The notes beneath the pieces are model-generated. The model was not told where the DNA came from, did no database searches, and saw nothing but the letters and a program-made list of their open reading frames with translations. The translations under genes were made by a program, and so were the position numbers. A DNA stretch of 64,000 nt from Acidimicrobiales bacterium (GTDB lineage Bacteria > Actinomycetota > Acidimicrobiia > Acidimicrobiales > Palsa-688), in contig DATLUM010000012.1 of the NCBI GenBank assembly GCA_035533095.1, forward strand, positions 61-64,060, in the 5' to 3' direction. Positions within the stretch are counted from its first letter, which is position 1. Every line of letters begins with the position of its first letter. Below, in pieces: positions 24,920-61,756 of this stretch.

Positions 24920-24933
24920 GGGCCGAAGGTCAC
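24920..24933. promoter_or_regulatory. DosR-box-like palindrome, 1 mismatch: GGGCCGAAGGTCAC
   Basis: 59 nt upstream of the receiver gene start. Same left half and centre as the box at 25421. Confidence 0.4.
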
Positions 24934-24962
24934 ATTGTCCTTCGATTCTCGTTTCCCTGCGG

Positions 24963-25385
24963 CTAGTCGGATTCGAGGGCCGGGTCGACCGCGGCGTAGG
25001 CACCCAACAGGTCCCTGACGGAGACCACGCCCGTCAAGCGGCCGGAATCCTCCACCAGGACGTGCCTCACGTATTGGTCCATCATCTCTTCGGCGACCTC
25101 CGCGACGGTCGCGGTCGCGTCGGCCCATGCGATCTCCGTGTGCGCGACTTCGGAGGCGGTGGTATCCCTCGGGTCGCGGCCGGAGCCGATCGCTCTGACC
25201 AGGTCACGTTCCGACACGATGCCGGACGGCTCGGCGCTTGCCTCGTTGCGGACGATGGCTGCGCCCACTTCTGCGTCGGCCAAGGTGCGCGCGACCTCCA
25301 CCAGCGACGCGTCAGGGGCTACCCACACGACGCTCTCCGAGACGAGCGTGGAAATGGGCATCGACCCGACACTGATCTCCGTCAT
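24963..25385 (-). CDS. CBS domain pair protein
   Basis: Two CBS repeats (VVWVAPDASLVEVARTLADAEVGAAIV...GIVSERDLVRAI; IAWADATATVAEVAEEMMDQYVRHVLVED...GVVSVRDLL). ATG 25385 lies within the longer ORF. Confidence 0.85.
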   Translation of the reverse strand: MTEISVGSMPISTLVSESVVWVAPDASLVEVARTLADAEVGAAIVRNEASAEPSGIVSERDLVRAIGSGRDPRDTTASEVAHTEIAWADATATVAEVAEEMMDQYVRHVLVEDSGRLTGVVSVRDLLGAYAAVDPALESD

Positions 25386-25420
25386 GTTCCTAGCATGGGT
25401 TGCCTCACCGGATCTCCATA

Positions 25421-25434
25421 GGGCCGAAGGTCCC
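25421..25434. promoter_or_regulatory. DosR-box-like palindrome GGGCCGAAGGTCCC
   Basis: Fits GGGNC-NWWN-GNCCC. 36 nt upstream of the CBS gene start. Flanked by TA..CT. Confidence 0.5.
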
Positions 25435-25436
25435 CT

Positions 25437-25838
25437 TTGCCGGCTCTCCACTCGGAGGGAGAATCGGTCATCCACCTTGTGAGGTCGGACGAAGGAGTGG
25501 ACAATGTCGAGGGTTGCACTGATGAGGGAACCCAGCCCGAAGCTGGCAGATGGCATCGTCACATGATCGAGCGCGAGCCTCTTGACGTGGCGCTGGCGGC
25601 GGCCCTGGTTGCCCGCCCCGGCGCCCCCTCGAGGCGGGCGGAGGTGCCCTCGACTGAATCCGGGGCCCATGTGGTCGACCTCGGTGGCGGGAGGATTCTC
25701 ATGGCGGTGGACTGCCCGAAGAGCGCGGAGATACTCGCCGATCTGGGTTACGAACCTGTGACGGTCGACATCTCGGAATTCGAGAAGCTCGAGGGATGCG
25801 AGGTGATTCGATGTCGACCGGCCGGCCTTCCTCTCTGA
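25437..25838 (+). pseudogene. C-terminal remnant of an amidinotransferase-superfamily gene (DDAH/arginine deiminase-like)
   Basis: GAHVVDLGGGRILMAVDCPKSAEILADLGYEPVTVDISEFEKLEGC resembles the last strands of DDAH-type enzymes. No N-terminal two-thirds is present. Overlaps the ATPase start. Confidence 0.4.
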
Positions 25839-28120
25839 TTCTGGGGTCCGCACTGGCCTTACTGGCTGCCGGTGCCATCGCGCATGCCGCCGGAGCACCC
25901 GGCCCGGGCGACGACATCTGGATGGCTGCCGGAGCCGTCGGCGCCGCCGACGCTCTGTGGGCGATGGTGAGTGGTCTGCGAGCCGGCCGTTTGGGCGTCG
26001 ATGTGATCGCGCTGTTGGCCGTCACCGGCGCCTTGGCTGTCGGCGAATACCTGGCGTCCGGCGTGATCGGTGTGATGGTCACCAGCGGCCGCTTCCTCGA
26101 GGACTGGGCAGAGGGTCGTGCTCGTCGTGATCTGCGCGCCCTCGCCGACCGGGCACCCCGGAGCGCTCACCGTTACGAAAACGGGGGGTTACGGACCGTC
26201 GAAGCGGGCCTCGTGCGTCCGGGAGATCGGCTGATGGTCCGCTCAGGAGAACTGGTCCCGGCTGACGGCAATCTCCTGTCCAGTGCGGTCCTGGACGAGT
26301 CGAACTTGACGGGAGAGTCGAGGCCGGTGGAGCGAGCATCCGGCGAACCCGTACGCAGCGGGGTGGTCAACGTCTCCTCTCCTTTCGACCTTGCGGTGAC
26401 AGCAAGGGCGTCCGAGAGCGCTTATGCCTCCATAGTCAGACTTGTATCCGCAGCCGAGTCTTCTCGCGCTCCTTTCGTCCGCCTTGCGGACCGCTATGCG
26501 AATTGGTTCCTCGGGCTCAGCCTGCTCGCCGGGGGCGCTGCGTGGATGGTCGCCGGGGCGGAGCGAGCTGTGGCGGTCCTGGTAGTCGCAACGCCGTGCC
26601 CGCTGATTCTCGCTGCACCCATAGCTCTGGTTGCCGGGCTGTCACGCGCGGCGCGGCGTGGCGTCGTGATCAAAGGCGGAGGGGTACTCGAGCGGCTGGC
26701 GCGCTGCACCACCCTCCTCATCGACAAGACCGGGACCTTGACGAGTGGGCATCCGGTGCTGGTGGACGTCGTCACGGCGGGGTCCATGGATCGCGACCAG
26801 GTGTTGGGCATGGCGGGATCCCTGGATCAGGTATCGGCACACGTGCTCGCCCACGCTGTCGTCCAAGCGGCCAGGGAGCGAGGTATGGACCTGGTGATCC
26901 CGAGCCGGGTCGAGGAAGTGCCGGGCAGGGGCATTAGAGGCGACGTCGGCGGGAAGCAGGTTTCCTTGGGAAAGGCCAATTGGGTCGGTCTGACGGGCAA
27001 TCCGTCGTGGGTGAGGTCGGCCCGCCGGCGGGCAAGGCTGGATGGGTCGATAACGGTATTCGTATCGGTCGACGACCAACCTGCTGGAGTCCTGCTCCTC
27101 GAGGACCCCGTACGCGTCGATGCCACCAGAACCATCCGGTCGTTGCGGCACAGCGGCATCAGCCGGATAGTCATGGTGACCGGCGATCGGGCCGAGGTGG
27201 CTGAAAGCGTTGGGGCCGCAATCGGAGTCGACGAGGTTCTCGCCGACCGAGCTCCGGAGGACAAGCTTGACGCTGTTCGCTTGGAGAGGCGGAATGCACC
27301 GACGATGATGGTTGGTGACGGGATCAATGACGCGCCTGCCCTGGCGCTGGCCGATGTCGGGGTAGCGATGGGATCGCGTGGTGCGACCGCTTCGTCGGAG
27401 GCAGCCGACGTGGTGCTGACCGTGGACCGGATCGACCGTTTGGGTGAAGCCCGGCACATCGCCCACAGGTCGCGAGTTCTCGCTATCCAGAGCGTCGTCG
27501 CCGGGATGGTGATGTCCCTGGTCGCCATGGGAGTCGCCGCCATGGGGTTTCTGCCGGCGGTGTGGGGTGCCTTTCTCCAAGAAGGCATCGATGTCGCCGT
27601 CATTCTCAACGCTCTCAGGTCAATGGCTCCGGCCAAGTCGGAAATCGTTCTGAACTCCGAAGACAGCCTCTTGACCCGGCGCTTCCGCGATGAACACGTA
27701 CAGATTCGGGAGTCGATAGATCGGGTCCGGTCGATAGCTGACTCTCTCGGCGACATCGGAGCCGATGAGATTCGCGACAGGGTCCGCGAGGCATACCGCC
27801 TGCTCAGCGAGACGGTTTGGCCCCACGAGGCGGCAGAACAGGAGATCCTGTATCCAGCTCTCGAGCGCATCCTCGGAGGGAGCGATCCGACCGGTCCCAT
27901 GAGCCGAGCACACATTGAAATCGCCCACCAGATCCGCCGGCTCGGACGGCTGATCGATGAGATCGGCGCTGACGCGCCCGATGGACAGGAGGTAGAAGAG
28001 ATCAGAATCCTCCTTTACGGGTTGTACGCGATCCTGCGGCTGCACACCAGCCAGGAAGACGAGAGCTACCTGTCGCTCGCGGATGACACCGAGCTGCTGA
28101 GCGCGGGAAGTCGCGAATAG
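25796..28120 (+). CDS. P1B-5-type heavy-metal P-type ATPase with a C-terminal hemerythrin-like domain
   Basis: TPCP in the TM helix (VVATPCPLILAAP), DKTGTLT, GDGINDAPAL and QEGID in the last TM. No N-terminal HMA domain. The C-terminal ~150 aa carry H/E motifs (WPHEAAEQEILYP, HIEIAHQ, LHTSQEDE). Confidence 0.85.
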   Translation: MRGDSMSTGRPSSLILGSALALLAAGAIAHAAGAPGPGDDIWMAAGAVGAADALWAMVSGLRAGRLGVDVIALLAVTGALAVGEYLASGVIGVMVTSGRFLEDWAEGRARRDLRALADRAPRSAHRYENGGLRTVEAGLVRPGDRLMVRSGELVPADGNLLSSAVLDESNLTGESRPVERASGEPVRSGVVNVSSPFDLAVTARASESAYASIVRLVSAAESSRAPFVRLADRYANWFLGLSLLAGGAAWMVAGAERAVAVLVVATPCPLILAAPIALVAGLSRAARRGVVIKGGGVLERLARCTTLLIDKTGTLTSGHPVLVDVVTAGSMDRDQVLGMAGSLDQVSAHVLAHAVVQAARERGMDLVIPSRVEEVPGRGIRGDVGGKQVSLGKANWVGLTGNPSWVRSARRRARLDGSITVFVSVDDQPAGVLLLEDPVRVDATRTIRSLRHSGISRIVMVTGDRAEVAESVGAAIGVDEVLADRAPEDKLDAVRLERRNAPTMMVGDGINDAPALALADVGVAMGSRGATASSEAADVVLTVDRIDRLGEARHIAHRSRVLAIQSVVAGMVMSLVAMGVAAMGFLPAVWGAFLQEGIDVAVILNALRSMAPAKSEIVLNSEDSLLTRRFRDEHVQIRESIDRVRSIADSLGDIGADEIRDRVREAYRLLSETVWPHEAAEQEILYPALERILGGSDPTGPMSRAHIEIAHQIRRLGRLIDEIGADAPDGQEVEEIRILLYGLYAILRLHTSQEDESYLSLADDTELLSAGSRE

Positions 28121-31680: not shown

Positions 31681-31694
31681 GGGTCTAAGGTCAC
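31681..31694. promoter_or_regulatory. DosR-box-like palindrome, 1 mismatch: GGGTCTAAGGTCAC
   Basis: In the divergent gap between the USP/ATPase operon (start 31656) and the ADH (start 31748). Confidence 0.4.
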
Positions 31695-31696
31695 CT

Positions 31697-31747
31697 CTGA
31701 ACAGGTTCGCAGAATTACCTGCCCGCCAATGGCGCGAACCTGTTCAG
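31697..31747. promoter_or_regulatory. 14-bp perfect inverted repeat CTGAACAGGTTCGC-N23-GCGAACCTGTTCAG ending 1 nt before the ADH GTG start
   Basis: Arms at 31697-31710 and 31734-31747 are exact reverse complements. No SD is visible between the repeat and the start codon. Confidence 0.5.
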
Positions 31748-32758
31748 GTGCAAGCTTGGATCGTCGAGCGACCATCACCCGTCGATGAGGGTCCCCTCAG
31801 GCTCGTGGAACGAGCGGTGCCTGTGCCCGGCCCCGGACAGATGCGGGTGCGGGTCCGAGCCTGTGGAGTCTGCCGGACGGACCTCCATCTGGCCGAAGGA
31901 GACCTGCCTCCGCGTCATCGGGGCGTGGTGCCGGGCCACGAGATCGTAGGTGTCGTCGATCGTCTGGGCGAGGGGGCCGGCAGATTCGCGGAAGGGGATC
32001 GGGTCGGGATCGCGTGGCTGCGCGGGACGTGCGGTCGGTGCCGGTTCTGCCGGGCGGGCAGCGAGAACCTGTGCATCCAGCCGAGTTTCACCGGTTGGGA
32101 CGCCGATGGAGGGTTCGCCGAGTACGCCGTCGTCGATGAGCGGTATGCCTACCGCCTGCCCGATGACTTCTCCGATACCGATGTGGCGCCGCTCCTGTGC
32201 GCCGGCATCATCGGCTACCGCGCGTTGAGGCGTACGAACCTCCCACGCTTCGGGCGCCTCGGGATCTACGGCTTCGGTGCGTCGGCGCATCTGGCAGCGC
32301 AGATCGCCATTCGGGAAGGTGCGACCGTGCACGTCCTGACCCGGTCGCAAGACGCACGGCAGCTCGCTCTCGAACTCGGCGCTGCATCCGTCGGCGACGC
32401 CACGGACAGCCCTCCCGAGCCCCTTGACGCCGCCATCCTGTTCGCCCCGGTGGGCACCCTGGTGCCCGTGGGGCTCAGCGCGCTCGATCGTGGGGGGACT
32501 CTCGTGGTGGCCGGGATTCACCTGACCGACATCCCCAGCCTCTCCTACGAACGCCATCTCTTCGAGGAGCGGACTCTCACGAGTGTCACGGCCAACACCA
32601 GGTCCGACGGAGAGGAGCTGCTCCTCGCCGCTGGACGCCTGCACATCGACGTCACCACGACCCCCTACCCGTTTGCGGAGGCCGACCGGGCACTGTCCGA
32701 CCTCGCGCACGACCGGGTTCGCGGTGCCGCGGTGATTGTCGTGGAAGGCGCAGCATGA
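31748..32758 (+). CDS. zinc-dependent alcohol dehydrogenase (MDR family)
   Basis: ACGVCRTDLH, GHEIVG, CGRCRFCRAGSENLC structural-zinc motif. GTG 31748 gives the typical MQAWIV... N-terminus. The long upstream ORF extension is not protein-like. Confidence 0.9.
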   Translation: MQAWIVERPSPVDEGPLRLVERAVPVPGPGQMRVRVRACGVCRTDLHLAEGDLPPRHRGVVPGHEIVGVVDRLGEGAGRFAEGDRVGIAWLRGTCGRCRFCRAGSENLCIQPSFTGWDADGGFAEYAVVDERYAYRLPDDFSDTDVAPLLCAGIIGYRALRRTNLPRFGRLGIYGFGASAHLAAQIAIREGATVHVLTRSQDARQLALELGAASVGDATDSPPEPLDAAILFAPVGTLVPVGLSALDRGGTLVVAGIHLTDIPSLSYERHLFEERTLTSVTANTRSDGEELLLAAGRLHIDVTTTPYPFAEADRALSDLAHDRVRGAAVIVVEGAA

Positions 32759-32803: not shown

Positions 32804-33058
32804 TCAGTAGACCCACACCGCTGTCCCCAGCGGCGCCAGGTTCTGCGCCCAGATCCAGTCGATCGCTTCGTTGCCCACCCGCACGCACCCGTGAGACACC
32901 GGGACGGGCGGCACGTACGAGTCGCCGTGGATGGCGAACCCGGAGTTGAAGAACTTCGGTCTCCACAGTTCGCCCAAGGCAGACACGACCAGCCCGTGAA
33001 GCTCTCCTGGTGGACTGACGGTGGTGTTCGTCGCAACGTGGGACCTTCGGCCCTTATC
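32804..33058 (-). pseudogene. C-terminal remnant of an L,D-transpeptidase (YkuD) catalytic domain
   Basis: FAIHGDSYVPPVPVSHGCVRVGNEAIDWIW contains the HG...SHGC(V/I)R active-site motif. The open frame starts right after a TGA and covers only ~84 aa, with no signal peptide or N-terminal part. Confidence 0.6.
33040..33053. promoter_or_regulatory. DosR-box-like palindrome GGGACCTTCGGCCC
   Basis: Exact reverse complement of the box at 25421. 62 nt upstream of the DUF1918 start. Confidence 0.5.
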
Positions 33059-33114
33059 TCAGGCGTTGCGGTTTGGGATCCTGGGATGTAGTGATCGCAC
33101 GAGGGAGGTTTGCC

Positions 33115-33315
33115 GTGCAGGCAAGCGTCGGAGATCGGATTGTCATCAAGGGCCACCACATCGGGGAGCCAGATCGGGACTGCGAGGTACTCGAGGCGCG
33201 GGGAGCGGATGGAGGACCCCCCTATCTGGTGCGCTGGGGCGACTCAGGCCACGAGGGGTTGTACTTCCCCGGATCGGACGCTTCGGTTCAGCATTTCGAG
33301 CACCACGGCGCCTGA
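33115..33315 (+). CDS. DUF1918 domain protein
   Basis: ASVGDRIVIKGHHIGEPDRDCEVLEARGADGGPPYLVRWGDSGHEGLYFPGSDA. GTG 33115 preceded by GAGGGAGG. Confidence 0.8.
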   Translation: MQASVGDRIVIKGHHIGEPDRDCEVLEARGADGGPPYLVRWGDSGHEGLYFPGSDASVQHFEHHGA

Positions 33316-33847: not shown

Positions 33848-33882
33848 GCGACAAGCATCCGCGATCGCGGAACCCGGCGGCA

Positions 33883-33896
33883 GGGTCTAAAGGCCC
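33883..33896. promoter_or_regulatory. DosR-box-like palindrome GGGTCTAAAGGCCC
   Basis: Fits GGGNC-NWWN-GNCCC. 36 nt upstream of the start at 33847 (minus), in the divergent gap with the CBS-BON gene. Confidence 0.5.
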
Positions 33897-33969: not shown

Positions 33970-33983
33970 GGGACCTCTGGCCC
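33970..33983. promoter_or_regulatory. DosR-box-like palindrome GGGACCTCTGGCCC (centre TC)
   Basis: Both half-sites are perfect. 71 nt upstream of the CBS-BON start at 34054. Confidence 0.45.
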
Positions 33984-34053
33984 TGCATGCCGAGCCGGCA
34001 AGCGATGCACGATTGACCTGGAGAAGCCCTACACGTGAGACAAGGAGAGGCAC

Positions 34054-34794
34054 ATGAGCCAGTGTCACGACACATACGAGGATCTTCGTGGCGTGACGGC
34101 AAGCCTGCCTGTCCGAGCCACCGATCTCATGACACCGAATCCTGTCGTGGTCGAACCCACCGCCACGGTGAAAGACATCGCCCAAGCGATGCTCCACCAC
34201 GATGTCCGCACGGTTCCGGTGATCGACGTCGGCGACCGGCTGGTCGGCGTGGTCAGCGAAGCCGACCTGATCTGCCGGGAGGGATACCCGACGGTCCGTC
34301 ACCACAACCTGGCGGCATTCGTCGCAGGTCTGCCTCCAGACGATGCCGGGCGCTGGACCGTTCGTTCCGAGGGTCTGACCGCCGAGGAGGTCATGACCAC
34401 CGGCGTGGTCACCTGCCAGGCGGACGAGCCCGTCGGTGCGGTAGCCAGGCGGATGCTCGAGCGGGACGTCCGGACGGTGCCGGTGATCGACCAGAGTCGG
34501 CTCGTGGGCGTGCTGTCCCGCCACGACATCCTTCGAATGTTCGTACGCCCGGACGGCGAGGTCCGGCAGCACATCTCCCGGATTCTGGACACTCCGGCGT
34601 GGGGTCCCGGCCACGATGTCAGCGCCGAGGTGCGTGACGGCGTGGTCGTCCTGTCGGGGACGGTGGAACATCCAGTGGACGCATCGGTGATCTGCAGTGT
34701 TGTCGGACAGGTCCCCGGCGTGATCGAGGTCGTGGACCGCATCATCGCCGAAGCCGAACTCGATCGACTTGCGCTGGGCCGTTCGAGTGACTGA
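34054..34794 (+). CDS. CBS pair plus BON domain protein
   Basis: Two CBS repeats (VVVEPTATVKDIAQAMLHHDVRTVPVID...GVVSEADL; VVTCQADEPVGAVARRMLERDVRTVPVID...GVLSRHDIL), then BON (VRDGVVVLSGTVEHPVDASVICSVVGQVPGVIEVVDRI). Confidence 0.85.
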   Translation: MSQCHDTYEDLRGVTASLPVRATDLMTPNPVVVEPTATVKDIAQAMLHHDVRTVPVIDVGDRLVGVVSEADLICREGYPTVRHHNLAAFVAGLPPDDAGRWTVRSEGLTAEEVMTTGVVTCQADEPVGAVARRMLERDVRTVPVIDQSRLVGVLSRHDILRMFVRPDGEVRQHISRILDTPAWGPGHDVSAEVRDGVVVLSGTVEHPVDASVICSVVGQVPGVIEVVDRIIAEAELDRLALGRSSD

Positions 34795-35586: not shown

Positions 35587-35611
35587 TTTCGGATCCCGGC
35601 GCGAACAGAAA

Positions 35612-35644
35612 GGCCCGCCAAAACCCTCATTGGTCTGGCGGACC
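35612..35644 (+). terminator. possible stem-loop downstream of the LOG gene
   Basis: GGCCCGCCA pairs with TGGCGGACC (8 of 9 bp, 15-nt loop), followed by CTCTTGCCCAGTTTTA. It is a weak intrinsic terminator candidate. Confidence 0.3.
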
Positions 35645-51033: not shown

Positions 51034-51263
51034 TGACCGGCGAACTGGTGCTCGCTGAGATGGTGAGAGGGTGGGCCGAGACCCGGTTCCCGGACGACCC
51101 GGGCGCGGTGGACCTTGCTGTGATGGTTGCTGAGCGCGCCTACAAGGCCGGCGCTTCGGTCAGCGAGGCCTGCCAGCGCGCCATGGACGCGGTCACCAGC
51201 CGGTCACTGCACCCTTCCCAGAGGCGTACCGTTACTGCCCGCCCGGAGCGCTTGGCGTCGTAA
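51034..51263 (+). CDS. hypothetical 76-aa helical protein
   Basis: GTG 51034. Very high GC3 by manual count. VTGELVLAEMVRGWAETRFPDDPGAVDLAVMVAERAYKAGASVSEACQRAM... Confidence 0.5.
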
Positions 51264-51319: not shown

Positions 51320-52027
51320 GTGCTCGTAGAGATCTGGTCCGATGTCGTCTGTCCTTGGTGCTACATCGGAAAGCGGCGCTTCGAAGCCGCCATGGAGCGT
51401 TTCGAGCACAAGGACGAGGTCGAGGTTCGCTGGCGGAGTTTCGAGTTGGACCCGAGGGCCCCGTTCCGCCGGTCCGGCACGATGGCCGACCACATCGCCA
51501 CCAAGTACGGCATGTCACGTGAGGAGGCCGCGGGCCGGCTCGACAGCATGAACCGCCTGGCGGCCAGGGAAGGTCTCGACTACGACCTTGCGCGTACGCA
51601 GGGCGGCAATTCGCTGGATGCCCACCGCCTGATCCACCTCGGCTACGCCGCCGGCGACGCCACCGGCGGCGAGGTCAACGAAGCTCTCCTCAAGGCCTAT
51701 TTTGTCGACCTGCTCCCGATCAGCGAACCGGACGTTCTCTTGGAGACCGGCTCGCGCGTCGGTCTCGAACCGGGGGAGATCCGGGCGATTCTCGAGGGAG
51801 ACCGGTTCGTCGCGGAGGTGCGGGCGGACGAGCTCGAAGCGGCGCGGCTCGGATGCACCGGGGTGCCGTTCTTCGTCATCGACCGAGCGTTCGCGATCCC
51901 AGGCGCTCAGGACGTCGAGACGTTCGCCCTGACCCTCGAACGCGCCTGGGGCCGCTCGCACCCCGCCGAGCCCGAGACCGTGGTCGCAGACGGCGCCGTC
52001 TGCACCGACGGTGACTGCCCGATCTGA
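51320..52027 (+). CDS. DsbA family oxidoreductase (FrnE-like, cytoplasmic)
   Basis: VEIWSDVVCPWCYIGKRRFE with a CPWC motif, and C-terminal GVPFFVI. Confidence 0.85.
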   Translation: MLVEIWSDVVCPWCYIGKRRFEAAMERFEHKDEVEVRWRSFELDPRAPFRRSGTMADHIATKYGMSREEAAGRLDSMNRLAAREGLDYDLARTQGGNSLDAHRLIHLGYAAGDATGGEVNEALLKAYFVDLLPISEPDVLLETGSRVGLEPGEIRAILEGDRFVAEVRADELEAARLGCTGVPFFVIDRAFAIPGAQDVETFALTLERAWGRSHPAEPETVVADGAVCTDGDCPI

Positions 52028-52038: not shown

Positions 52039-54444
52039 CTATGACAGGGCGCACGTCCCTTGCCAACCGCCGGAGAAGTACGGCGGGGGCGCCAAGCCCG
52101 AAGGCGGCTGAGCCACCAGCGTGACGAGACCGTCGGCCGCCATGAAATCCGACTTCTGCTCCTGAGCGGCGCACGCCCGTCTCGGCGCCTCGTGCGGGTC
52201 GCCCCCGGTGAAGTTGGGTACGTCGGACGGCGGCGGGGGATCGGTGCCGTACTGATCGGCGCCGACCGGGCCCGCGTCGAAGAACACCATCGCCGAACCG
52301 GGATACGTGTCCGATGTGATCGCCGGCAGCCCCCACGAGGGATCTGAGGAGGAGTAGCAGTACGCGCCCGACGGGTCGTTGCCGCCGCACAACCTCGACG
52401 GGTCGAGCGCCGGCGCAAACGTCGCGGCTCCGATGCTCCGGGCCTCGTCCTCGGCGGTCACGTCAGCCACCTGATGGTCACCCCATGCGACCTGCATCAG
52501 GACCTGGTGGTCCGGGGTGTCGGGAAGCAGGCCGCCGGAAGCCGTTGACGTCATGTGGGTCGCGTAGCCGTTCGGGTCGGCGCGGTCCCACAGCGTCTGG
52601 ATCAGGTCGAGGGTCAGCTGCCGCTCCGACTGGTCCGGGTAGAAGAGGTCGAACAGGTTCGAGTACCCCAACCCGCCGGTCGGGTTGGAGGGGGTGATCG
52701 ACAGCAGCGACGACGGTCCCAGCGGCGAGGTGGCGACGTAGTCGCTGGAGCGCGGCAGGAGGACCGCGTAGTCCATGCCGGGCACACCCAGGCTGCAGTG
52801 CTTCACGTCGACGGAGATCGCGCAGACCGTTCCGCCGTAGATTCCGCCCTGGCTGTTGCCGTCGTAGTACACATCGCTCGTGTCTATGAACGACGCCGAA
52901 CTGCCGGGATAGCGGAAGGCACCGTTCGAGGCGAACCCGTCCGGGTGGATCATCAGTCGCTGCAGGTACAGGAAGTTCAGCTCTCCCTGCAGGGTCCGGT
53001 CGATGAGCAGCGAGAAGTTCGACAGGTCCGACAGTGCGAGCACGGCGTTGGGTATGTCAGCGTCGGCGAAACCGAACCAGTCAGTGGCGCAGTACATCAT
53101 CCCGAAACGACCGGCCATCTCCTCCTGCGGGCTCGCTGTCACCTCGCTGTCACTGCCGAACAGGCCGTGGCCGTATTCGACCGGTCTCATCAATGCCGTG
53201 CCCCAGCCCTTCTGCCCGACGATGCAGATGAAGCCCGCCTGGTACGTCTGTCCCGGCACCTGGCTGGGAGTTGCATAAAGGTTGGTCGGGTCGAGAGCGA
53301 ACTCGCCCGGTGACGGGCAGTCGTCGAAGGGCGTGCCGGCCGGAGTCGGTGCAGTCAATGTCTCGCACTTGACCGGGGGCGAGCAGGTGGGCGCCACGTA
53401 GCAAGGGACGGTGAATGTCCCGGTGATCTCACGGGCCACGTAGGGGTTCTGGGACGTCGTGTAGTCCGCCACCGACGAGACGGTGAAGGCCGGTGCCTTG
53501 CTGGACGGCGTCACGACGCCGGCCTTCATGTCGGCGGTCGTCTGGCCGAGCTGGCCCAACGCGTCGTTGCGCATCGAGACCAGCCTGCTCGTCACGCTCT
53601 CGGTGCTGGCTGTGGTGAAATCCCATGCCAGGTACAGGTCGGAGCGAGCCCAGCCGGCCTCGGACAGGTCGGCGAAAATCCCGTTCATGTGGGCCGTGCG
53701 GGGATCGAGCGAACCGGCTGTCCCGTCCCTGTAGGCCTTGAAAGCTGGTGAAGGTGCCACGACGGTCCCGTCGTCGGCGTGGACGTGGCGCAAGGCCACG
53801 ATGTAACGATGACCGTCAAGCAGGTTCTCGGCGGGGTGGATCATCAGATCCTGCTGCACCGAGCCGACTGCACCCGCCGGCAGAAGCCCGGCTTCCGAGG
53901 TGTACTGGTCGACCTCTGCCCAGACCGGCCATGTCTGACCGGTGTCAGCGTCGAGAAGGATCACGCCCGTGTCAGGCGCTGCGTTGGCCGACATACTCGT
54001 GTCGGTCGGGATGCCGGACGCCACGAGGTCGGCGTTCTTGGTCACGCCGGGGAGGACGGTCAGTATCTGCGCGCCGGCGCTGAAACCGTCGCTCCAGTCG
54101 TTCCAGGATGACGGGTCGATCGGCTTGCCCTCGGCGTTGCGCGGCATGGCCAGCGGGTTGAGGTTCAGCTTCCGCCCGGTGAGGCTGGTCGGGTCGTAGC
54201 TGGTGAGCCAGTCGTCGGGATAGGGGAGCATGCACTGCTGCGGCACGAGCGGGTCGCAGCCCTGCGGGTTGGTGGCGTACCCGGGACTGGAAGGGTCGGC
54301 CCAACCGCTCCAGTTGTCGTGGTCGTGGTTGACCCACGAGCCCTGAACCGCACCCGATGCCGGCACGAAGTAGACGCCCAACCATGCGAGCGCCAGCGCG
54401 CCGACGGCGAGACGAACGGATCTTTCCCCCAGCTTCCCCAGCAT
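52039..54444 (-). CDS. secreted 801-aa protein with an alpha/beta-hydrolase-type nucleophile elbow
   Basis: N-terminal signal anchor. YDGNSQGGIYGG (G-x-S-x-G). Family not recognised. Confidence 0.65.
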   Translation of the reverse strand: MLGKLGERSVRLAVGALALAWLGVYFVPASGAVQGSWVNHDHDNWSGWADPSSPGYATNPQGCDPLVPQQCMLPYPDDWLTSYDPTSLTGRKLNLNPLAMPRNAEGKPIDPSSWNDWSDGFSAGAQILTVLPGVTKNADLVASGIPTDTSMSANAAPDTGVILLDADTGQTWPVWAEVDQYTSEAGLLPAGAVGSVQQDLMIHPAENLLDGHRYIVALRHVHADDGTVVAPSPAFKAYRDGTAGSLDPRTAHMNGIFADLSEAGWARSDLYLAWDFTTASTESVTSRLVSMRNDALGQLGQTTADMKAGVVTPSSKAPAFTVSSVADYTTSQNPYVAREITGTFTVPCYVAPTCSPPVKCETLTAPTPAGTPFDDCPSPGEFALDPTNLYATPSQVPGQTYQAGFICIVGQKGWGTALMRPVEYGHGLFGSDSEVTASPQEEMAGRFGMMYCATDWFGFADADIPNAVLALSDLSNFSLLIDRTLQGELNFLYLQRLMIHPDGFASNGAFRYPGSSASFIDTSDVYYDGNSQGGIYGGTVCAISVDVKHCSLGVPGMDYAVLLPRSSDYVATSPLGPSSLLSITPSNPTGGLGYSNLFDLFYPDQSERQLTLDLIQTLWDRADPNGYATHMTSTASGGLLPDTPDHQVLMQVAWGDHQVADVTAEDEARSIGAATFAPALDPSRLCGGNDPSGAYCYSSSDPSWGLPAITSDTYPGSAMVFFDAGPVGADQYGTDPPPPSDVPNFTGGDPHEAPRRACAAQEQKSDFMAADGLVTLVAQPPSGLAPPPYFSGGWQGTCALS

Positions 54445-54512
54445 GCCTACTCTCCTTCGAAAAAAGAGAAAACCGTGTAGCGGCCAGAGCCTATCTGTAC
54501 AGTCACTGGACG

Positions 54513-56081
54513 ATGGCTAGACGGCTCCTGGTGGTGGCCTTCGTGGTGGCGGCCGCTCTAGCGGGATGCACGCCGGGCGCCGTGAAGCACCTGTCCCATC
54601 AGCAGACCCGGCCTGAGGAACAGCCAGCTTCGGTGCACCTGTCGTCCTACGGCGGCGGGTCGGTAGTGACGGCCGCGGCGAGCACCGCAACGGGCCGCGG
54701 CTACTGGGTGGCGACCACCGACGGCACTGTGACGCCCGAAGGGGACGCGGTCGCGCACGGCGATGCCGCGTCGCTCCAGCTCGGTGCACCGATCGTGAGC
54801 ATCACGGCGACGAGGAGCGGCAACGGCTACTGGCTCCTCGGCGGCGACGGCGGCGTGTTCAACTTCGGCGACGCGCGCTTCTACGGATCGATGGGAGGGG
54901 CGCACCTCAACGGCCAGGCACTGCAGATAGTCGGCACCCCGTCGGGCGACGGATACTGGTTCGTGGCGCGTGACGGCGGGGTGTTCAACTTCGGCGACGC
55001 CCGGTTCTACGGCTCGACCGGATCGATCCGGCTGAACCGGCCCGTCGACGGCATGGCGGCGACGCCTTCAGGGCAGGGTTACTGGCTCGTGGCGCGTGAC
55101 GGCGGCGTGTTCAACTTCGGCGACGCCGGGTTCTACGGTTCGACGGGCTCTATCCGCCTCAACCAGCCCGTGGTGGGCATGGCAGCCACGCCTTCAGGGC
55201 AGGGCTACTGGCTCGTGGCACGCGACGGCGGGATCTTCAACTTCGGGGATGCACCCTTCCTCGGGTCGGACGGTGCCAGCAAGCTGCCCGCCCCCGCCAT
55301 CGGCATGATCGCCAGTCCTGACGGCGGTGGCTACTGGATCTTGCTCGGCAACGGGCAGGTTCACGCTTTCGGTGACGCTGCGGCGTTGCAGGTCCCGCCG
55401 TTCCAGACGACCGGCTACTCGCTCGCCGGCCAGGTCGTCGCCATCGACCCGGGCCACAACGGCGGCAACGGATCCGACCCCGCGTACATCAACCAACTGG
55501 TATGGAACGGGCGTGCGTACGAATCCTGTGACACCACCGGGACGGAGACGGATGCGGGGTACACCGAGGCGGCGTTCAACTTCGACGTGGCCACCCGCCT
55601 CGCCGGCGCGCTCCGCTCCGAGGGTGCGACCGTGGTCATGACCCGCGACAGCAACGGTGGGGTCGGGCCGTGCATAACCCAGCGGGCCGCCATCGGCAAC
55701 TCGTCAGGGGCGGACGCGATGTTCGATATACACGCCGATGGCGGGCCGGCCGGCGGGTATGGCTTCGCCGTCCTCGAACCGGTCGCCGATGGGCCCAACG
55801 ACGGAGTCATCTCCTCGTCCGACACCCTCGCCTCCATCACCCGCGACACGTTCGAAGCGGTCACAGGTGAGTCGGTCAGCACGTACGACGGTGTCAACGG
55901 TCTCCAACCGCGTGGCGACCTAGCCGGCCTCAACCTCACCACCGTGCCGAAGGTGCTGATCGAATGCGCCAACATGCGCAACGCCGGGGACGCCGCGAAG
56001 GTCTCCGACCCGGGCTGGCGGCAGACCGCCGCGACCGCCTTGGCCGAGAGCGCGTCCCGCTTCCTCATCGGCTATCCCTAA
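54513..56081 (+). CDS. lipoprotein with six ~42-aa GYW...DGGVFNFGDA repeats fused to an N-acetylmuramoyl-L-alanine amidase (Amidase_3) domain
   Basis: Lipobox AAALAGC. Repeats listed under the repeat feature. C-terminal VVAIDPGHNGG...FDIHADG...ECANMRN is amidase_3-like. Confidence 0.85.
   Translation: MARRLLVVAFVVAAALAGCTPGAVKHLSHQQTRPEEQPASVHLSSYGGGSVVTAAASTATGRGYWVATTDGTVTPEGDAVAHGDAASLQLGAPIVSITATRSGNGYWLLGGDGGVFNFGDARFYGSMGGAHLNGQALQIVGTPSGDGYWFVARDGGVFNFGDARFYGSTGSIRLNRPVDGMAATPSGQGYWLVARDGGVFNFGDAGFYGSTGSIRLNQPVVGMAATPSGQGYWLVARDGGIFNFGDAPFLGSDGASKLPAPAIGMIASPDGGGYWILLGNGQVHAFGDAAALQVPPFQTTGYSLAGQVVAIDPGHNGGNGSDPAYINQLVWNGRAYESCDTTGTETDAGYTEAAFNFDVATRLAGALRSEGATVVMTRDSNGGVGPCITQRAAIGNSSGADAMFDIHADGGPAGGYGFAVLEPVADGPNDGVISSSDTLASITRDTFEAVTGESVSTYDGVNGLQPRGDLAGLNLTTVPKVLIECANMRNAGDAAKVSDPGWRQTAATALAESASRFLIGYP
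54693..55398 (+). repeat. tandem ~126-nt coding repeats (six units; units starting at 54951, 55077 and 55203 are closest to each other)
   Basis: GYWFVARDGGVFNFGDARFYGSTGSIRLNRPVDGMAATPSGQ, then GYWLVARDGGVFNFGDAGFYGSTGSIRLNQPVVGMAATPSGQ, then GYWLVARDGGIFNFGDAPFLGSDG... Confidence 0.8.
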
Positions 56082-56132
56082 AGAACCTCTTCAGGACGGG
56101 CACCCCCCGGCGGGGCGGTCGTAGAGTGCGGC

Positions 56133-57302
56133 ATGGACTGGCCCCTTCGCTTCGGCATCTTCCTCGCACCGTTCCATCCCGCCGGGCAAAACCCGACGCT
56201 CGCCCTGGAGCGCGACATGGAGCTGATCGTCCGCCTGGACCAACTCGGCTACGACGAGGCCTGGATCGGCGAGCATCATTCGGCAGGCTTCGAGATCGTC
56301 GCCTCGCCCGAGGTGTTCATCGGTGCTGTCTCGCAGCGGACCCGCCACATCAAACTGGGGACCGGTGTCAGTTCGCTGCCGTATCACCATCCGCTGATCC
56401 TGGCGGACCGCATGGTGCTGCTCGATCACATCACGAGGGGCAGGGTGATGTTCGGGGTAGGACCGGGCGCGCTACCTTCCGACGCCTTCATGATGGGCAT
56501 CGACCCGAACAGGCAGAGAGAGATGATGGAGGAGTCGCTGGAGGCGATCCTCGCGCTGCTCACGACAGACGAGCCGGTGAACATGCAGACCGACTGGTTC
56601 ACCCTCCGCGACGCCCGCCTGCAACTGCGCCCGTATACGCACCCGCGCTTCGAGGTGGCCGTGGCAGCGCAGGTTTCGCCGGCAGGGCCGAGGGCAGCCG
56701 GGCGGTTCGGGGTGTCGCTGCTCTCGTTGGGAGCGACGACCGCCGGCGGCTTCGATGTCCTCGGCGCCCATTGGGAGACATGTGAGGAACGTGCCGCCAA
56801 GTTCGGTACCACGGTCGACAGACGCTCGTGGCGCCTCGTCGGTCCGATGCACATCCGCGAGACCGAGGAGCAGGCGCGCGCCGATGTCGAGCACGGTCTC
56901 GCCGACTGGGTCCGCTACTTCCAGGAGGTGGCCGCTCTTCCGATCGCACCCCCGACCGACGACCACACCACCCTTCTGGAAGCCATGAACGCCTCCGGCA
57001 TCGCCGTGATCGGAACACCCGACATGGCGGCTGCACAGATCGAGCGGCTGATCGAGCAGTCGGGCGGGTTCGGTACCTATCTGTTCATGGCGCACGAGTG
57101 GGCCGACCGCCAGGCGACCCTCTCGTCATACGAGCTGTTCGCCAAGGAGGTCATGCCGAGGTTCCAGCGCTCCTCGGAGAGGGCAGTCCGGTCGCGCGAC
57201 TGGGCTGCGGCCAACCGGCCGGAGTTCATGGGCGCCGCCATCAACGCGGTAGGCAAGGCGATCACGGACCACCTGGCAGAGAAGCAGGCGACCACCGCCT
57301 AA
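56133..57302 (+). CDS. LLM-class (luciferase-like) flavin/F420-dependent oxidoreductase
   Basis: LDQLGYDEAWIGEHH and a TIM-barrel LLM pattern, 389 aa. Confidence 0.85.
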   Translation: MDWPLRFGIFLAPFHPAGQNPTLALERDMELIVRLDQLGYDEAWIGEHHSAGFEIVASPEVFIGAVSQRTRHIKLGTGVSSLPYHHPLILADRMVLLDHITRGRVMFGVGPGALPSDAFMMGIDPNRQREMMEESLEAILALLTTDEPVNMQTDWFTLRDARLQLRPYTHPRFEVAVAAQVSPAGPRAAGRFGVSLLSLGATTAGGFDVLGAHWETCEERAAKFGTTVDRRSWRLVGPMHIRETEEQARADVEHGLADWVRYFQEVAALPIAPPTDDHTTLLEAMNASGIAVIGTPDMAAAQIERLIEQSGGFGTYLFMAHEWADRQATLSSYELFAKEVMPRFQRSSERAVRSRDWAAANRPEFMGAAINAVGKAITDHLAEKQATTA

Positions 57303-58444: not shown

Positions 58445-58458
58445 GGGCCGTTGGGCCC
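58445..58458. promoter_or_regulatory. DosR-box-like palindrome GGGCCGTTGGGCCC
   Basis: Fits GGGNC-NWWN-GNCCC with a TA flank. In the gap between the ADH (minus) and arcA (plus). Confidence 0.5.
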
Positions 58459-58506: not shown

Positions 58507-58520
58507 GGGCCCTTAGCCCC
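58507..58520. promoter_or_regulatory. DosR-box-like palindrome GGGCCCTTAGCCCC (TA flanks on both sides)
   Basis: TAGGGCCCTTAGCCCCTA, 55 nt upstream of the arcA ATG. Confidence 0.5.
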
Positions 58521-58574
58521 TAACCCTGCGGCGGCGGTCTTCTTAGCGTCGACAGTGAAACGGAGGAACTGGCA

Positions 58575-59855
58575 ATGAACGCTTCGCTGTCCTCTTTCAA
58601 CGTCCAATCAGAGGTCGGAATCCTGCGCAAGGCTGTCGTGCACAGACCGGGGCTGGAATTGGCCCGTCTCAGTCCCAGCAATGTTGGCAGCCTTCTCTTC
58701 GACGACGTGCTCTGGGCGAAGCGCGCCCGTGACGAGCACGACTCGTTCTGCGACACCTTGACGCAAAACCGTGTCGAGGTCCTCTACTTCGAGCAGCTGT
58801 TGGCGGAGACGCTGGACACACCCGAGGGCCGGTCATTCGTGATCGATCGGATCTGCACGCCGGAGGTTGTCGGGCCTGCTCTCGTCCGCGCGTTGCGGAC
58901 CCTCTCCGAGGGGGTGGACGGGAAGACACTCGCCACCTATCTCATCGGCGGGGTGCTGAAATCGGATCTCCATCCTCGCCTGCAGGTCGCCTCGTCGGGC
59001 CTCGGTCGCGACGAGGAGGGGTGGTCCGCGTCCGTGCAGGGCCTCACATGGGACGTGCTCGGTGACGACGACTTCGTGCTCCCGCCGTTGCCGAACCATC
59101 TGTTTCAGCGCGACAACTCGGCCTGGATCTACGGGGGTGTCTCGGTGAACCCGATGGCAAAGGCGGCGCGCCAGCGCGAATCACTCCACAGCACGGCGAT
59201 CTACCGGTACCACCCGATGTTCAAGGACGCCCGGTTCGAGTTCTGGTACGGCGGTGACGACACCGACCACCTGCCGGCTTCTGTCGAGGGCGGTGACATA
59301 CACGTCATCGGCAACGGTGCCGTTCTCATCGGCATTGGCGAGAGGACTACGCCAGCAGCCGTCGAGATCCTCGCCGGTTCGCTGTTCGCGAAGGGGGCCG
59401 CCTCCCAAGTGATCGCCGCCGAGCTCCCGCGCTCGAGGGCGTTCATGCACCTCGACACCGTCATGACGATGGTCGACTCCGACGCGTTCGTCGTGTACCC
59501 GTACCTCGATCCGTCGCTGCGGGCGTGGAGGCTCACACCGGCAGAGGGAGGCACTCTTACGGAGCGGCTGCCCGACCTGTGGGAAGCGCTGGCCGGCGCG
59601 CTCGATGTCGAGAAGATCCGGTTGCTGTCCGCAGACGAAGATCTGCGGGCCGCCGAGAGGGAGCAGTGGGACGACGGCACCAACTTCCTGGCCGTGGCTC
59701 CCGGGGTCGTCGTCGGATACGAGCGCAACGTGACCACCAATACCATGCTGCGCCGGGCCGGCATAGAGGTGATCACCGTCCCCAGCAGCGAGCTCGGCCG
59801 GGCGCGCGGCGGCCCGCGGTGCATGACCTGCCCCCTCGAGCGGGATCCGGTCTGA
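58575..59855 (+). CDS. arcA: arginine deiminase
   Basis: N-terminal [13 protein letters not shown], and [10 protein letters not shown] with the catalytic Cys near the C-terminus. 426 aa. Confidence 0.9.
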
Positions 59856-59856
59856 G

Positions 59857-60810
59857 ATGCGCGTGGTCGTAGCGCTCGGTGGTAATGCGGTGCTCACCCG
59901 GGGAGAGGCTCCCGATGCCGACATCCAGGAGCATCACGTGCGCGCGGCCGTGCAGGCCCTGCTCCCGCTCGCGAGGGCCCACCAGCTCGTGCTCACCCAT
60001 GGCAACGGGCCGCAGGTCGGCGCGCTCGCCCTGGAATCAGCGAAAGACCCGGCACTCACGCGGCCGTACCCGCTCGACGTTCTGAGCGCGCAAACCCAGG
60101 GAATGATCGGTTACTGGCTGCTGCAGGCGCTGGACGAAGGGTCGCCGGGCACGGCTGTCGCAGCGCTCATCACCCGGACGATCGTCTCGCTATCCGACCC
60201 GGCGTTCGTCGATCCTCAGAAGTTCGTCGGCCCCGTCTACGAAGAGGACGAGGCAAGACGGATTGCGTCGCAGTCGGGTTGGATCGTCAAGGTCGACGGT
60301 CCGTACTGGCGCCGGGTCGTCGCCTCGCCATCGCCTCTGGGCATCGTCGAGATCCCCCTGATACGCACACTGGTGGACGCCGGCGTGATGGTCGTCTGCG
60401 CCGGTGGTGGGGGGATCCCGGTGTCACGTGACCCGTCCGGGAGGTTGACGGGTGTCGAAGCTGTGGTGGACAAGGACGCCACCGCAGCGCTGCTGGCCGA
60501 GCAGCTAGGAGCCGACGCCCTGTTGATGCTGACGGATGTGGCCGCAGTGTTCCGCGATTACGGCACCGACCGCGAGCGCCCGATCCATCTCACGGAACCG
60601 ACGTTCCTACGCTCGTTGCAGTTCCCCACAGGCTCGATGGGGCCGAAAGTCGATGCCGCTTGCCGTTTCGTGGAACGTACGGGAGGGATCGCCGGGATAG
60701 GAGCGCTCGCCGAAGCGGAAGCAATCCTCAAAGGCCGGGCGGGGACCCTAGTGATGCCGAGGGGCAGCAAGCCCGTGGGGCTCGTGCCGCCCGAACGGCG
60801 CTCTGATTAG
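59857..60810 (+). CDS. arcC: carbamate kinase
   Basis: MRVVVALGGNAVL..., THGNGPQVG, VCAGGGGIPV. Starts 1 nt after the arcA stop. Confidence 0.9.
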   Translation: MRVVVALGGNAVLTRGEAPDADIQEHHVRAAVQALLPLARAHQLVLTHGNGPQVGALALESAKDPALTRPYPLDVLSAQTQGMIGYWLLQALDEGSPGTAVAALITRTIVSLSDPAFVDPQKFVGPVYEEDEARRIASQSGWIVKVDGPYWRRVVASPSPLGIVEIPLIRTLVDAGVMVVCAGGGGIPVSRDPSGRLTGVEAVVDKDATAALLAEQLGADALLMLTDVAAVFRDYGTDRERPIHLTEPTFLRSLQFPTGSMGPKVDAACRFVERTGGIAGIGALAEAEAILKGRAGTLVMPRGSKPVGLVPPERRSD

Positions 60811-61212
60811 TCAGGCGGCGCCCAAGCGCCGGCCGGTCACGACGTGTGTCTGGATCCTTACCACGTGCTGGCCCGGCTGGCTCACGCGAGGTTTCGGCAG
60901 GTGCGCACACTCCGCATGATCCCGCTCCGCCATGGCTAGGCCCCGGACCAGGACGCTCCACGGGCGGCCGTCCTGGCCGATTCCATCCACCTCGAAGGCG
61001 ACCAGTTGGCCGGCGATGTGAGAGAACAGCCCCGCTCCCACCCGGAGCAGGACGCCCGGACCGCACATTGCATAATCGACTGGAAGGACCGTGGGTGCGT
61101 CCGGCCCCGAGATGCCGAGGTGGCCCGGCGAGTGTTTGGAGGCACCGATGGTCAGCAACTGCCGGCACTCGACTACGCCAAGGACATCCGATCCTCGCTC
61201 GTCTATCCACAT
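60811..61212 (-). CDS. pyridoxamine 5'-phosphate oxidase-like (split-barrel) family protein
   Basis: LPVDYAMCGPGVLLRVGAGLF...WSVLVRGLA resembles the gene at 43347-43814. Confidence 0.75.
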   Translation of the reverse strand: MWIDERGSDVLGVVECRQLLTIGASKHSPGHLGISGPDAPTVLPVDYAMCGPGVLLRVGAGLFSHIAGQLVAFEVDGIGQDGRPWSVLVRGLAMAERDHAECAHLPKPRVSQPGQHVVRIQTHVVTGRRLGAA

Positions 61213-61248
61213 TGCTGACTCGATCCGTGTGGATCTGGTGTCAGGCCG

Positions 61249-61659
61249 TCAGTTCTTGACGACGACGACGACCGGCGCGCTCGCGTGGGTCGTGACCTGC
61301 TGGCTGACCGAGCCGAGCAACAGGCCGGCGAAACCGCCGTGGCCGCGTGAGCCGACGACAAGTATCTGGGCCTCTTTCGCCAGGTCCATCAGCACTGTCG
61401 CAGGCCGGCCCCGCTGCACCACCAACTTGAACTCGAACCCCGGATCGCTCCCGAGTAGCGAGTGGACGTCCTCTTCGAGTTTCTTGTCGACGATATGGGC
61501 GAATTCCTCGTCAGAGCCGAATTCTCCGGGCGACCAGGCCCGGACCACGTCGACCTTGGCACCGCGCAGCCGTGCTTCCTCCGCGGCCCACAGGAGCGCC
61601 TTCTGGGATCCCTCGGAGCCGTCGAAGCCGACAACCATGCGCAGGCTGGGTGCTGTCAT
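61249..61659 (-). CDS. universal stress protein
   Basis: MVVGFDGSEGSQKALLWAA...ILVVGSRGHGGFAGLLLGSVSQQVTTHASAPVVVV. Confidence 0.9.
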   Translation of the reverse strand: MTAPSLRMVVGFDGSEGSQKALLWAAEEARLRGAKVDVVRAWSPGEFGSDEEFAHIVDKKLEEDVHSLLGSDPGFEFKLVVQRGRPATVLMDLAKEAQILVVGSRGHGGFAGLLLGSVSQQVTTHASAPVVVVVKN

Positions 61660-61742
61660 TTGTGCACCTCCTTGCTTGTCATGGGCGAATCCAAGGCGGA
61701 CCGCCTACGACGATTGTCCGTCCGGGCTCTTCGGCGGAGGTA

Positions 61743-61756
61743 GGGGCTAAAGACCC
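61743..61756. promoter_or_regulatory. DosR-box-like palindrome GGGGCTAAAGACCC
   Basis: Fits GGGNC-NWWN-GNCCC with a TA flank. 84 nt upstream of the USP start, in the divergent gap with the SDR gene. Confidence 0.5.

Follow-up and report, generated by a model that had tools for sequence, protein, structure and literature searches.

The box and its island

We analyzed a 64,000-nt stretch of DNA from an Acidimicrobiales bacterium (assembly GCA_035533095.1, contig DATLUM010000012.1), referred to below as the window. Gene calls and domain assignments delimit within it a stress-gene island of 39 kb (23531-62652), which holds all 16 copies of a short palindromic box. An earlier note on this DNA had described the box as a candidate regulon operator resembling the DosR/DevR box of Mycobacterium tuberculosis. 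The analysis covered the whole window, and gene starts, promoters and transcription starts are predicted throughout.

According to Pfam, the island encodes one tandem and two single universal stress proteins (USPs), a stand-alone receiver, Hsp20, DUF1918, LOG-family and SDR proteins. It also encodes a CBS-pair protein, a CBS-BON protein, three Zn-dependent alcohol dehydrogenases (Zn-ADHs) and two P-type ATPases, one of them of the heavy-metal type and fused to a hemerythrin domain. Further members are FtsH, an M50 site-2 protease with a CBS domain, an S8 peptidase, DsbA, an APH+AAA_33 protein of the Rv2004c type, two PNPOx-like proteins and an arginine deiminase with a carbamate kinase. The Rv2004c assignment was made from the APH+AAA_33 architecture together with PMC8701281. 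For the tandem USP the best solved-structure match is M. tuberculosis Rv2623/TB31.7, and Rv2626c is among the PDB matches of the CBS protein. An NCBIfam search of the island proteins returned no specific names. Their nearest relatives are just 50-58% identical and come mostly from Acidimicrobiia-type metagenome-assembled genomes (MAGs).

The strict form of the box, GGGNCNWWNGNCCC, occurs 10 times in the window, compared to 0.54 expected from 100 dinucleotide-preserving shuffles, in which the highest count was 3. All eight strict sites listed in the earlier note were found at the coordinates given there, and two further strict sites had been overlooked (38436, GGGACGTTGGGCCC, and 43132, GGGACGAAGGGCCC). 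The note had proposed a comparison of intergenic with coding density. With genes called by a codon-usage model, 10.4% of the window is non-coding, and this fraction holds nine of the ten strict boxes (binomial p = 1.3e-8). The single strict box in coding DNA, 43132, lies within the last 37 nt of the Rv2004c-like open reading frame (ORF), and a 67-aa ORF preceded by a strong Shine-Dalgarno sequence starts 61 nt downstream of the box.

The proposed pattern scan with up to one mismatch held for the strict sites and failed for the relaxed class, since 20 one-mismatch matches compare to 14.1 expected. Because this class as a whole is not enriched, near matches are credible by their position alone. 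We therefore scanned the whole window with a position-weight matrix built from the strict sites. The six near matches that had been reported (44424, 44451, 33970, 31681, 41589 and 24920) all exist, are all intergenic and rank directly under the strict sites (11th-17th). Altogether 15 of the 17 top matrix matches are intergenic, and the highest score, 23.9 bits, belongs to strict box 38436. The total of 16 boxes thus consists of 10 strict copies and 6 degenerate ones, the latter situated in other promoter gaps of the same island. One-mismatch matches in coding sequence (995, 6105, 18155, 38149 and 43356) are probably due to chance. Neither the pattern nor the matrix scan of the window found a strict or high-scoring box outside 24920-61756; the box is absent from the first 24.9 kb, from the window past 61.8 kb and from the 6 kb beyond its right end.

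De novo motif discovery, likewise suggested in the earlier note, led to the same element. An expectation-maximization (EM) search seeded with every 16-mer of all 39 intergenic segments had box copies as its eight best seeds, converged on GGGAC(C/G)TTCG(A/G)CCCTA and gave the box as its top motif. Trinucleotide dyad counts placed the related AGG-N10-CCT first, and GGG-N8-CCC was diluted by the G+C-rich background. Tetranucleotides brought no improvement; dyads were too coarse and the EM search was used instead.

The full palindrome reads T-A-GGG-N-C-N-W-W-N-G-N-CCC-T-A, that is, a 5-4-5 inverted repeat GGGNC-N4-GNCCC with an A/T-rich center, the layout that defines this class of boxes. The TA flank noticed earlier is borne out, and the element can be written T-A-GGGNCNWWNGNCCC-T-A. 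When the boxes are oriented, G3, C5, G10 and C12 are present in 16/16, the bases G1-G3 and C5 show little or no variation in either half-site, and T or A occupies 29 of the 32 central positions.

Short G+C-rich inverted repeats in intergenic DNA might simply be structural, as REP-like repeats, terminator hairpins or RNA stems, or might be a chance or compositional artefact. We regard this as extremely improbable. Positions 4 and 11 are complementary in just one of the ten strict sites, hence the symmetry is that of a protein dimer site and not that of an RNA or DNA stem. Stems formed by the boxes would comprise just 3-5 pairs and are not followed by a T-tract. Moreover, the sites lie in divergent promoter gaps, not at 3' ends. 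Terminator-like sites number 3 compared to 5.3 expected and none coincides with a box, and an Rfam search of the window gave no family match. With no covariation, no terminator enrichment and no Rfam match, the hairpin/terminator reading is effectively refuted, and none of the 100 shuffles reached ten strict matches as chance would demand.

Promoter geometry and predicted targets

Taking the 16 boxes in both orientations yielded 32 flanks, in which we examined offsets 1-59 from the box edge. Matches to a -10-like hexamer, NANNNT, cluster at two distances from this edge, with 7 starting at 24 nt and 10 at 25 nt. Hexamers at these two offsets occur in 16 of the 32 flanks, one flank having both, and at least one canonically spaced hexamer is found at 14 of the 16 boxes. 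All other offsets gave 0-4 cases, with an intergenic background of 0.035 per position (p about 2e-9). The same spacing peak appeared in independent actinobacterial loci, with 15 and 5 of 70 flanks at the two offsets and 0-6 at the others. If the hexamer occupies -12 to -7, the box is predicted to span about -50 to -37, with its center at -42.5/-43.5, and to abut the -35 position. Canonical sigma-70 promoters with -35 and -10 elements were not found in the 33-45 kb region.

Orientation by the hexamer also revealed that the boxes are not symmetric. The center is TT in 11 boxes and AA in 2, the promoter-distal half tends to GGGAC, and the two bases after the proximal half are mostly T (14/16) and A (10/16). 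Where two boxes share a divergent gap (33883/33970, 38370/38436 and 44424/44451), they are 27-87 bp apart and each faces outward to its own gene.

In five genes, none of which has a Shine-Dalgarno sequence, the start codon is 35-36 nt away from the box, which places it exactly 7 nt past the hexamer. We predict leaderless transcripts for these five: the CBS protein gene (start codon 25385, minus strand), a 162-aa gene (33847, minus), a 96-aa ORF together with FtsH (38333, minus), the M50 protease gene (41552, minus) and the Rv2004c-like gene (41639, plus). Transcription is predicted to begin 36-37 nt downstream of each box edge, and at these five genes the predicted start coincides with the start codon. 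The remaining targets start 51-83 nt from their boxes and have strong GGAGG-type ribosome-binding sites.

At the left end of the series, the degenerate box at 24920-24933 (GGGCCGAAGGTCAC, 8.9 bits, intergenic) points to the minus strand, with hexamer GAGACT at 24891-24896 (offset 24). Its predicted targets are the stand-alone receiver gene (24861 to 24451), with its start codon 58 nt off, and the tandem-USP gene (24442 to 23531). The receiver protein encoded at 24451-24861 has 136 aa and no DNA-binding domain. From the strict box at 25421-25434 two divergent promoters are predicted. On the minus side it would serve the CBS gene (25385 to 24963) through hexamer CATGCT (25392-25397, offset 24), with the ATG 7 nt further on. 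On the plus side hexamer GAGAAT (25459-25464, offset 25) precedes small ORFs and the P-type ATPase-hemerythrin gene (to 28120). In the product of this last gene (25811-28120, plus), of the heavy-metal type, the C-terminal hemerythrin (HHE) domain occupies residues 622-756. This fusion of a transporter with a domain that possibly senses O2, nitric oxide (NO) or iron is unusual, and it is placed under a box-controlled promoter.

The degenerate box at 31681-31694 (GGGTCTAAGGTCAC, 9.8 bits, intergenic) is unoriented and lies between a USP gene (31575 to 31051) and Zn-ADH1 (31748 to 32758); it is the weakest assignment of the series. A 27-nt inverted repeat is found at the same place (31684-31710 and 31734-31760, 78% complementary, 23 nt between the arms, core GAACAGGTTCGC/GCGAACCTGTTC). 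It overlaps the right half of the box and the GTG start of Zn-ADH1 at 31748, and could be a leader hairpin or the site of a second regulator.

The strict box at 33040-33053 is oriented to the plus strand, with hexamer GATCCT at 33077-33082 and the DUF1918 gene (33115-33315; DUF1918 E = 4.8e-27) as predicted target. Beside it a 60-aa ORF (32804-32986, minus) matches the C-terminal part alone (profile positions 86-146) of the YkuD L,D-transpeptidase domain and is probably a gene remnant. In the next gap the strict box at 33883-33896 faces the minus strand (hexamer GATGCT, 33854-33859) and the 162-aa gene (33847 to 33359), whose ATG is 35 nt off. The degenerate box at 33970-33983 (GGGACCTCTGGCCC) faces the plus strand (hexamer CACGAT, 34008-34013), with the CBS-BON (34054-34794) and LOG-family (34804-35586) genes as predicted targets. 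The convergent LOG/FtsH gap that follows (35587-35940, 354 nt) contains a weak box-like sequence, GGTTCGAAAACCCC, at 35726 and a terminator-like hairpin at 35637-35652; no other feature was identified in it.

FtsH (38046 to 35941) is the second predicted target of the strict box at 38370-38383 (minus; hexamer CAGGCT, 38340-38345), after the 96-aa ORF (38333 to 38043), whose GTG start lies 36 nt from the box. The neighboring strict box at 38436-38449, the top-scoring one, faces the plus strand (hexamer GAACCT, 38473-38478) and a 97-aa ORF (38513-38806). A single degenerate box at 41589-41602 (GAGCCGGATGACCC, 9.7 bits) forms the center of an 86-nt divergent gap (36 + 14 + 36), with hexamers on both sides (CACACT, 41559-41564, and AAGGCT, 41627-41632). 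Its predicted targets are the M50/CBS site-2 protease gene (41552 to 40494) and the Rv2004c-like gene (41639 to 43168), and an independent gene caller placed both starts at the same positions.

The strict box at 43132-43145 faces the plus strand (hexamer GAGATT, 43169-43174) and the 67-aa ORF (43207-43410), whose Shine-Dalgarno sequence is AAAGGAGG and which the independent gene caller likewise reports. No family match was obtained for this ORF. It shares 64 nt with the 3' end of the convergent PNPOx-like gene, and the transcript over it could equally be an antisense RNA. In the following gap, the degenerate box at 44424-44437 (GGGGCGAACGCCCT, 14.2 bits, minus; hexamer CAATCT, 44394-44399) is predicted to serve Hsp20 (44352 to 43900) and the PNPOx-like gene (43814 to 43347). 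Its partner at 44451-44464 (GGGACCTTCGACTC, 10.7 bits, plus; hexamer TACGGT, 44489-44494) is predicted to serve Zn-ADH2 (44526-45569) and a 212-aa ORF (45585-46223).

In the right part of the island, the strict box at 50968-50981 (plus; hexamer TACCGT, 51006-51011) has a 76-aa ORF (51033-51263) and DsbA (51320-52027) as predicted targets; the S8 peptidase gene on its other side (50834 to 46815) has no canonically placed -10. The strict box at 58445-58458 is unoriented, adjoins the called start of Zn-ADH3 (58439 to 57321) and has no canonical -10; its possible roles are those of an upstream or auxiliary site of arcA or of a site for Zn-ADH3 itself. The strict box at 58507-58520 (plus; hexamer TAGCGT, 58544-58549) precedes arcA (58575-59855) and the carbamate kinase gene (59857-60810), its predicted targets, which encode ADI and AA_kinase domains. 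The last strict box, at 61743-61756 (minus; hexamer GACAAT, 61713-61718), is predicted to serve a USP gene (61659 to 61249) and the second PNPOx-like gene (61212 to 60811). The SDR gene on its other side (61849-62652) has no canonical -10.

Relation to the DosR/DevR and OsdR regulons

The response regulator OsdR (SCO0204) of Streptomyces coelicolor has the published consensus AGGGCCGATCGGCCCT and was shown in the same study to recognize M. tuberculosis sites as well (PMC5069765). We made an independent matrix solely from the 25 OsdR sites in Table 1 of that study, and eight of the window's boxes were within its top nine matches in the window. Both sets of sites share the core and the geometry, the G/C preference at positions 6 and 9 and the A before GGG. 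They differ in the center, which in the window is AA or TT and oriented to the promoter rather than AT, and in an extra T that leads to TAGGG...CCCTA. The gene content points in the same direction. The S. coelicolor stress island SCO0167-SCO0219 is likewise one gene cluster with boxes in most gaps (PMC5069765), and the predicted OsdR targets include USPs, Zn-ADHs, PNPOx, a hemerythrin-domain protein and subtilisin-like peptidases (PMC5069765). All these families are common to the window, where the last is represented by a single subtilisin-like peptidase. In contrast, the window lacks the nitrate reductase and transporter genes of S. coelicolor and instead has arcAC, FtsH, the M50 protease and the Rv2004c-like gene, and the regulator and kinase genes are not in its island.

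For M. tuberculosis it is known that DevR reads G3, G4, G5 and C7 of each half-site directly and that G5 and C7 are essential (PMC3177182). These bases (GGG.C) are the positions that are constant in the window's boxes. The 5-4-5 dyad and the A/T center are also shared with the Dev boxes of M. tuberculosis; departures from its consensus are the TA directly next to GGG and the G/C, in place of T/A, at positions 6 and 9. The likeness to the DosR/DevR box that had been claimed stands for core and center. The boxes resemble the consensus of Streptomyces OsdR more than the 20-mer of M. tuberculosis, TTSGGGACTWWAGTCCCSAA, with which only the GGG.C core and the W center are common. The predicted position of the box matches that of the proximal DevR box. 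In M. tuberculosis the promoter-proximal Dev box overlaps the -35 element (PMC3029386), and the primary box of tgs1 is centered at -42.5 (PMC3177182).

The DosR regulon of M. tuberculosis lists HspX, USPs, Rv2625c (a metalloprotease), Rv2626c, Rv1997 and Rv2004c (PMC5309233, PMC8701281). Counterparts in the island are the HspX-type Hsp20, the Rv2623-like tandem USP, the Rv2626c-like CBS protein, the Rv2625c-type M50 protease with CBS domain, the Rv2004c-type protein and a ctpF-type P-type ATPase. The promoters are organized differently. In M. tuberculosis two to four tandem Dev boxes stand in helical phase at every promoter, about 21 bp from center to center; in the window two divergent promoters can share a single box, and leaderless transcripts are predicted for five targets.

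Related loci provide the link to a regulator. In the Microthrixaceae MAG locus L011, the Acidimicrobiia MAG locus L019 and the metagenome contigs L061 and L065, a Response_reg+GerE protein 41-62% identical to M. tuberculosis DosR (approximate query) is encoded next to an Rv2004c-like gene. The same boxes precede the Rv2004c-like, USP, arcA and ADH genes that neighbor the DosR-like genes in this set, and the recognition helix of these regulators reads AEKTVKNYVS. The L011 locus contains seven boxes, of which two, with a distance of 21 bp, are located in front of the dosR operon and others precede arcA, USP and Rv2004c-like genes. Per 64 kb we counted 10 strict boxes in the window and 6.5 in loci with DosR-like genes; the figure falls to 2.0 for other actinobacterial loci and to 0.2 for proteobacterial ones. 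The organism itself is known solely from metagenome assemblies, and diverse Actinomycetota MAGs supply the closest homologues of its Rv2004c-like protein, at 55-58% identity. Scans of genomes and metagenomes with this protein returned nothing between 58% and 99% identity, and close-range phylogenetic footprinting was consequently impossible.

Taken together, the de novo motif, the OsdR matrix, the bases read by DevR, the spacing to the -10, the target families and the related loci support the DosR/DevR-type regulon suggested in the earlier note. We conclude, with a probability of about 0.8, that the boxes bind a dimeric response regulator of the NarL/LuxR family and the DosR(DevR)/OsdR type, whose gene lies outside the window, and that the island is activated through them. 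The data show the enrichment of the box, its location and oriented anatomy, the spacing, the agreement with OsdR sites and DevR-read bases and the association with DosR-like genes in other genomes; which protein binds, in which direction it regulates and what signal induces it are inferred. The island is a fresh instance of a known regulon, the DosR/OsdR regulon, with a well-resolved promoter architecture.

Several observations speak against this conclusion. Neither tblastn with DosR nor a hidden Markov model (HMM) of DosR-like regulators found a Response_reg+GerE protein in the six frames of the 64 kb, and the 6 kb beyond the right end contain none either. The NarL/LuxR-type DosR orthologue that the note proposed to look for is thus not encoded in the window. 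The HMM matched the stand-alone receiver alone, and only through its receiver domain. The DosR probe is an approximate query. By comparison, the regulators of M. tuberculosis and S. coelicolor sit inside their own islands. The M. tuberculosis 20-mer is matched poorly, with 5 mismatches at the best site and 6 at a further five. No second box above the 99.9th percentile was found at +/-18-24 bp of any of the 16 boxes, although in M. tuberculosis it was footprinting that revealed the secondary sites, which are poorly conserved, so that sequence analysis alone could miss them. Finally, boxes 31681 and 58445 lack a -10-like hexamer at the canonical distance, and every transcription start site is a prediction.

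Some of these points would fit a different factor, either a non-DosR GerE/LuxR protein or an unrelated dimer, that converged on GGG.C-N4-G.CCC. Such a factor would account for a window without a DosR-type gene, for TA flanks and G/C at positions 6 and 9 unlike the M. tuberculosis consensus, and for single rather than tandem boxes at each promoter. Nevertheless we consider it unlikely. A matrix derived from OsdR sites alone recovers the window's sites, the invariant bases are those contacted by DevR, and loci that do encode DosR-like regulators, with the helix AEKTVKNYVS, carry the same boxes before the same gene families.

The direction of regulation can be judged from the promoters. The word operator, as used in the earlier note, implies repression, and a repressor bound next to the -35 position could in principle keep RNA polymerase away until a stress signal frees the promoter. 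However, these promoters have no recognizable -35 hexamer, the rigid spacing of 24-25 nt to the -10 is typical of class-II activation, and the characterized relatives DevR and OsdR activate from this position. The geometry thus points to an activator site beside the -35, and we judge repression to be very improbable.

For a DosR/OsdR-type activator we propose the following mechanism. The phosphorylated regulator would bind the box directly upstream of the -35 position, centered near -42.5/-43.5, at promoters with a -10-like hexamer and no recognizable -35, and would recruit RNA polymerase as a class-II-type activator. The signal would be hypoxia, NO, CO or redox. In the 39-kb island it would turn on about 19 promoters, with more than 30 genes, among them those for USPs, Hsp20, CBS, FtsH, the M50 protease, the Rv2004c-like kinase, P-type ATPases, Zn-ADHs, the arginine deiminase pathway and PNPOx-like proteins.

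The dormancy-type DosR/OsdR regulon, its box and its promoter geometry (center near -42.5) would hence extend to poorly sampled, uncultured Actinomycetota. The resulting map of 16 sites, about 19 promoters and five predicted leaderless transcripts could be used to annotate hypoxia and redox responses in metagenomes.

The haem-PAS protein and remaining features

The only kinase-like gene of the island (38803-40374, minus) encodes a FixL-type protein with haem-PAS, PAS, GAF and HisKA_3 domains. Its haem-PAS domain matches FixL structures with E = 3e-19, and the conserved proximal His region is present. The H-box, however, reads RIARNLYS compared to RIARDLHD in homologues, so that Tyr replaces the phospho-acceptor His. 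The homologues are kinases of 612-650 aa with a HATPase_c domain, whereas the window's copy ends right after the dimerization domain. The protein contains no HATPase_c, and no ATPase remnant was found downstream in any frame. Judged by its sequence, the protein is a pseudo-kinase derivative and not a functional FixL-like sensor histidine kinase. The same form without His and ATPase domain was found in two other assemblies. Among truncated relatives, P0079 also lacks the His and P0112 retains it. The gene follows that of the M50 protease on the same strand, and the two are probably co-transcribed from box 41589.

FixJ, like DosR, is a LuxR/GerE-type response regulator. The FixL/FixJ system has the haem-PAS domain in common with the island protein, whose DHp is of the HisKA_3 type; FixJ/FixK boxes are unrelated in sequence to those of the window. 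The sensor in the island is a PAS-haem protein (FixL-like), in contrast to the GAF-haem proteins DosS and DosT of M. tuberculosis. A corresponding arrangement with an intact kinase exists in L011 (5966-8077), where the DosR-like regulator is paired with a haem-PAS/PAS/HisKA_3/HATPase_c kinase and not with one of the GAF-haem DosS/DosT type. The kinase of L061 is of the GAF type, and therefore the sensor module varies between actinobacterial lineages. Full-length homologues in L102-L104 are orphan kinases with no regulator adjacent and gave no help in locating the regulator.

The pseudo-kinase may be more than a dead gene: it may poison the real kinase through heterodimers, or dock the regulator. 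One could speculate that the island is an 'orphaned' DosR-type regulon with minimal promoters and its regulator elsewhere, in which a former kinase was remodelled into a box-controlled, O2-dependent feedback modulator. A minimal promoter in this sense consists of one oriented box and a -10 at the rigid distance of 24-25 nt, with the central box firing two leaderless genes across 86 bp. We hold this extended scenario to be rather doubtful. The single-box design with rigid spacing and the haem-PAS pseudo-kinase are modest and concrete leads on module variation outside mycobacteria and Streptomyces.

Two further regions were noted. Within the island, 52039-57302 is a box-free block that encodes an 801-aa protein without family match, an Amidase_3 protein and a luciferase-like monooxygenase, and it may be an insertion. 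Outside the island, an ORF at 15050-15772 (plus) matches just positions 35-195 of the 414-position profile of the prolyl-oligopeptidase N-terminal propeller and is probably a truncated gene or pseudogene.

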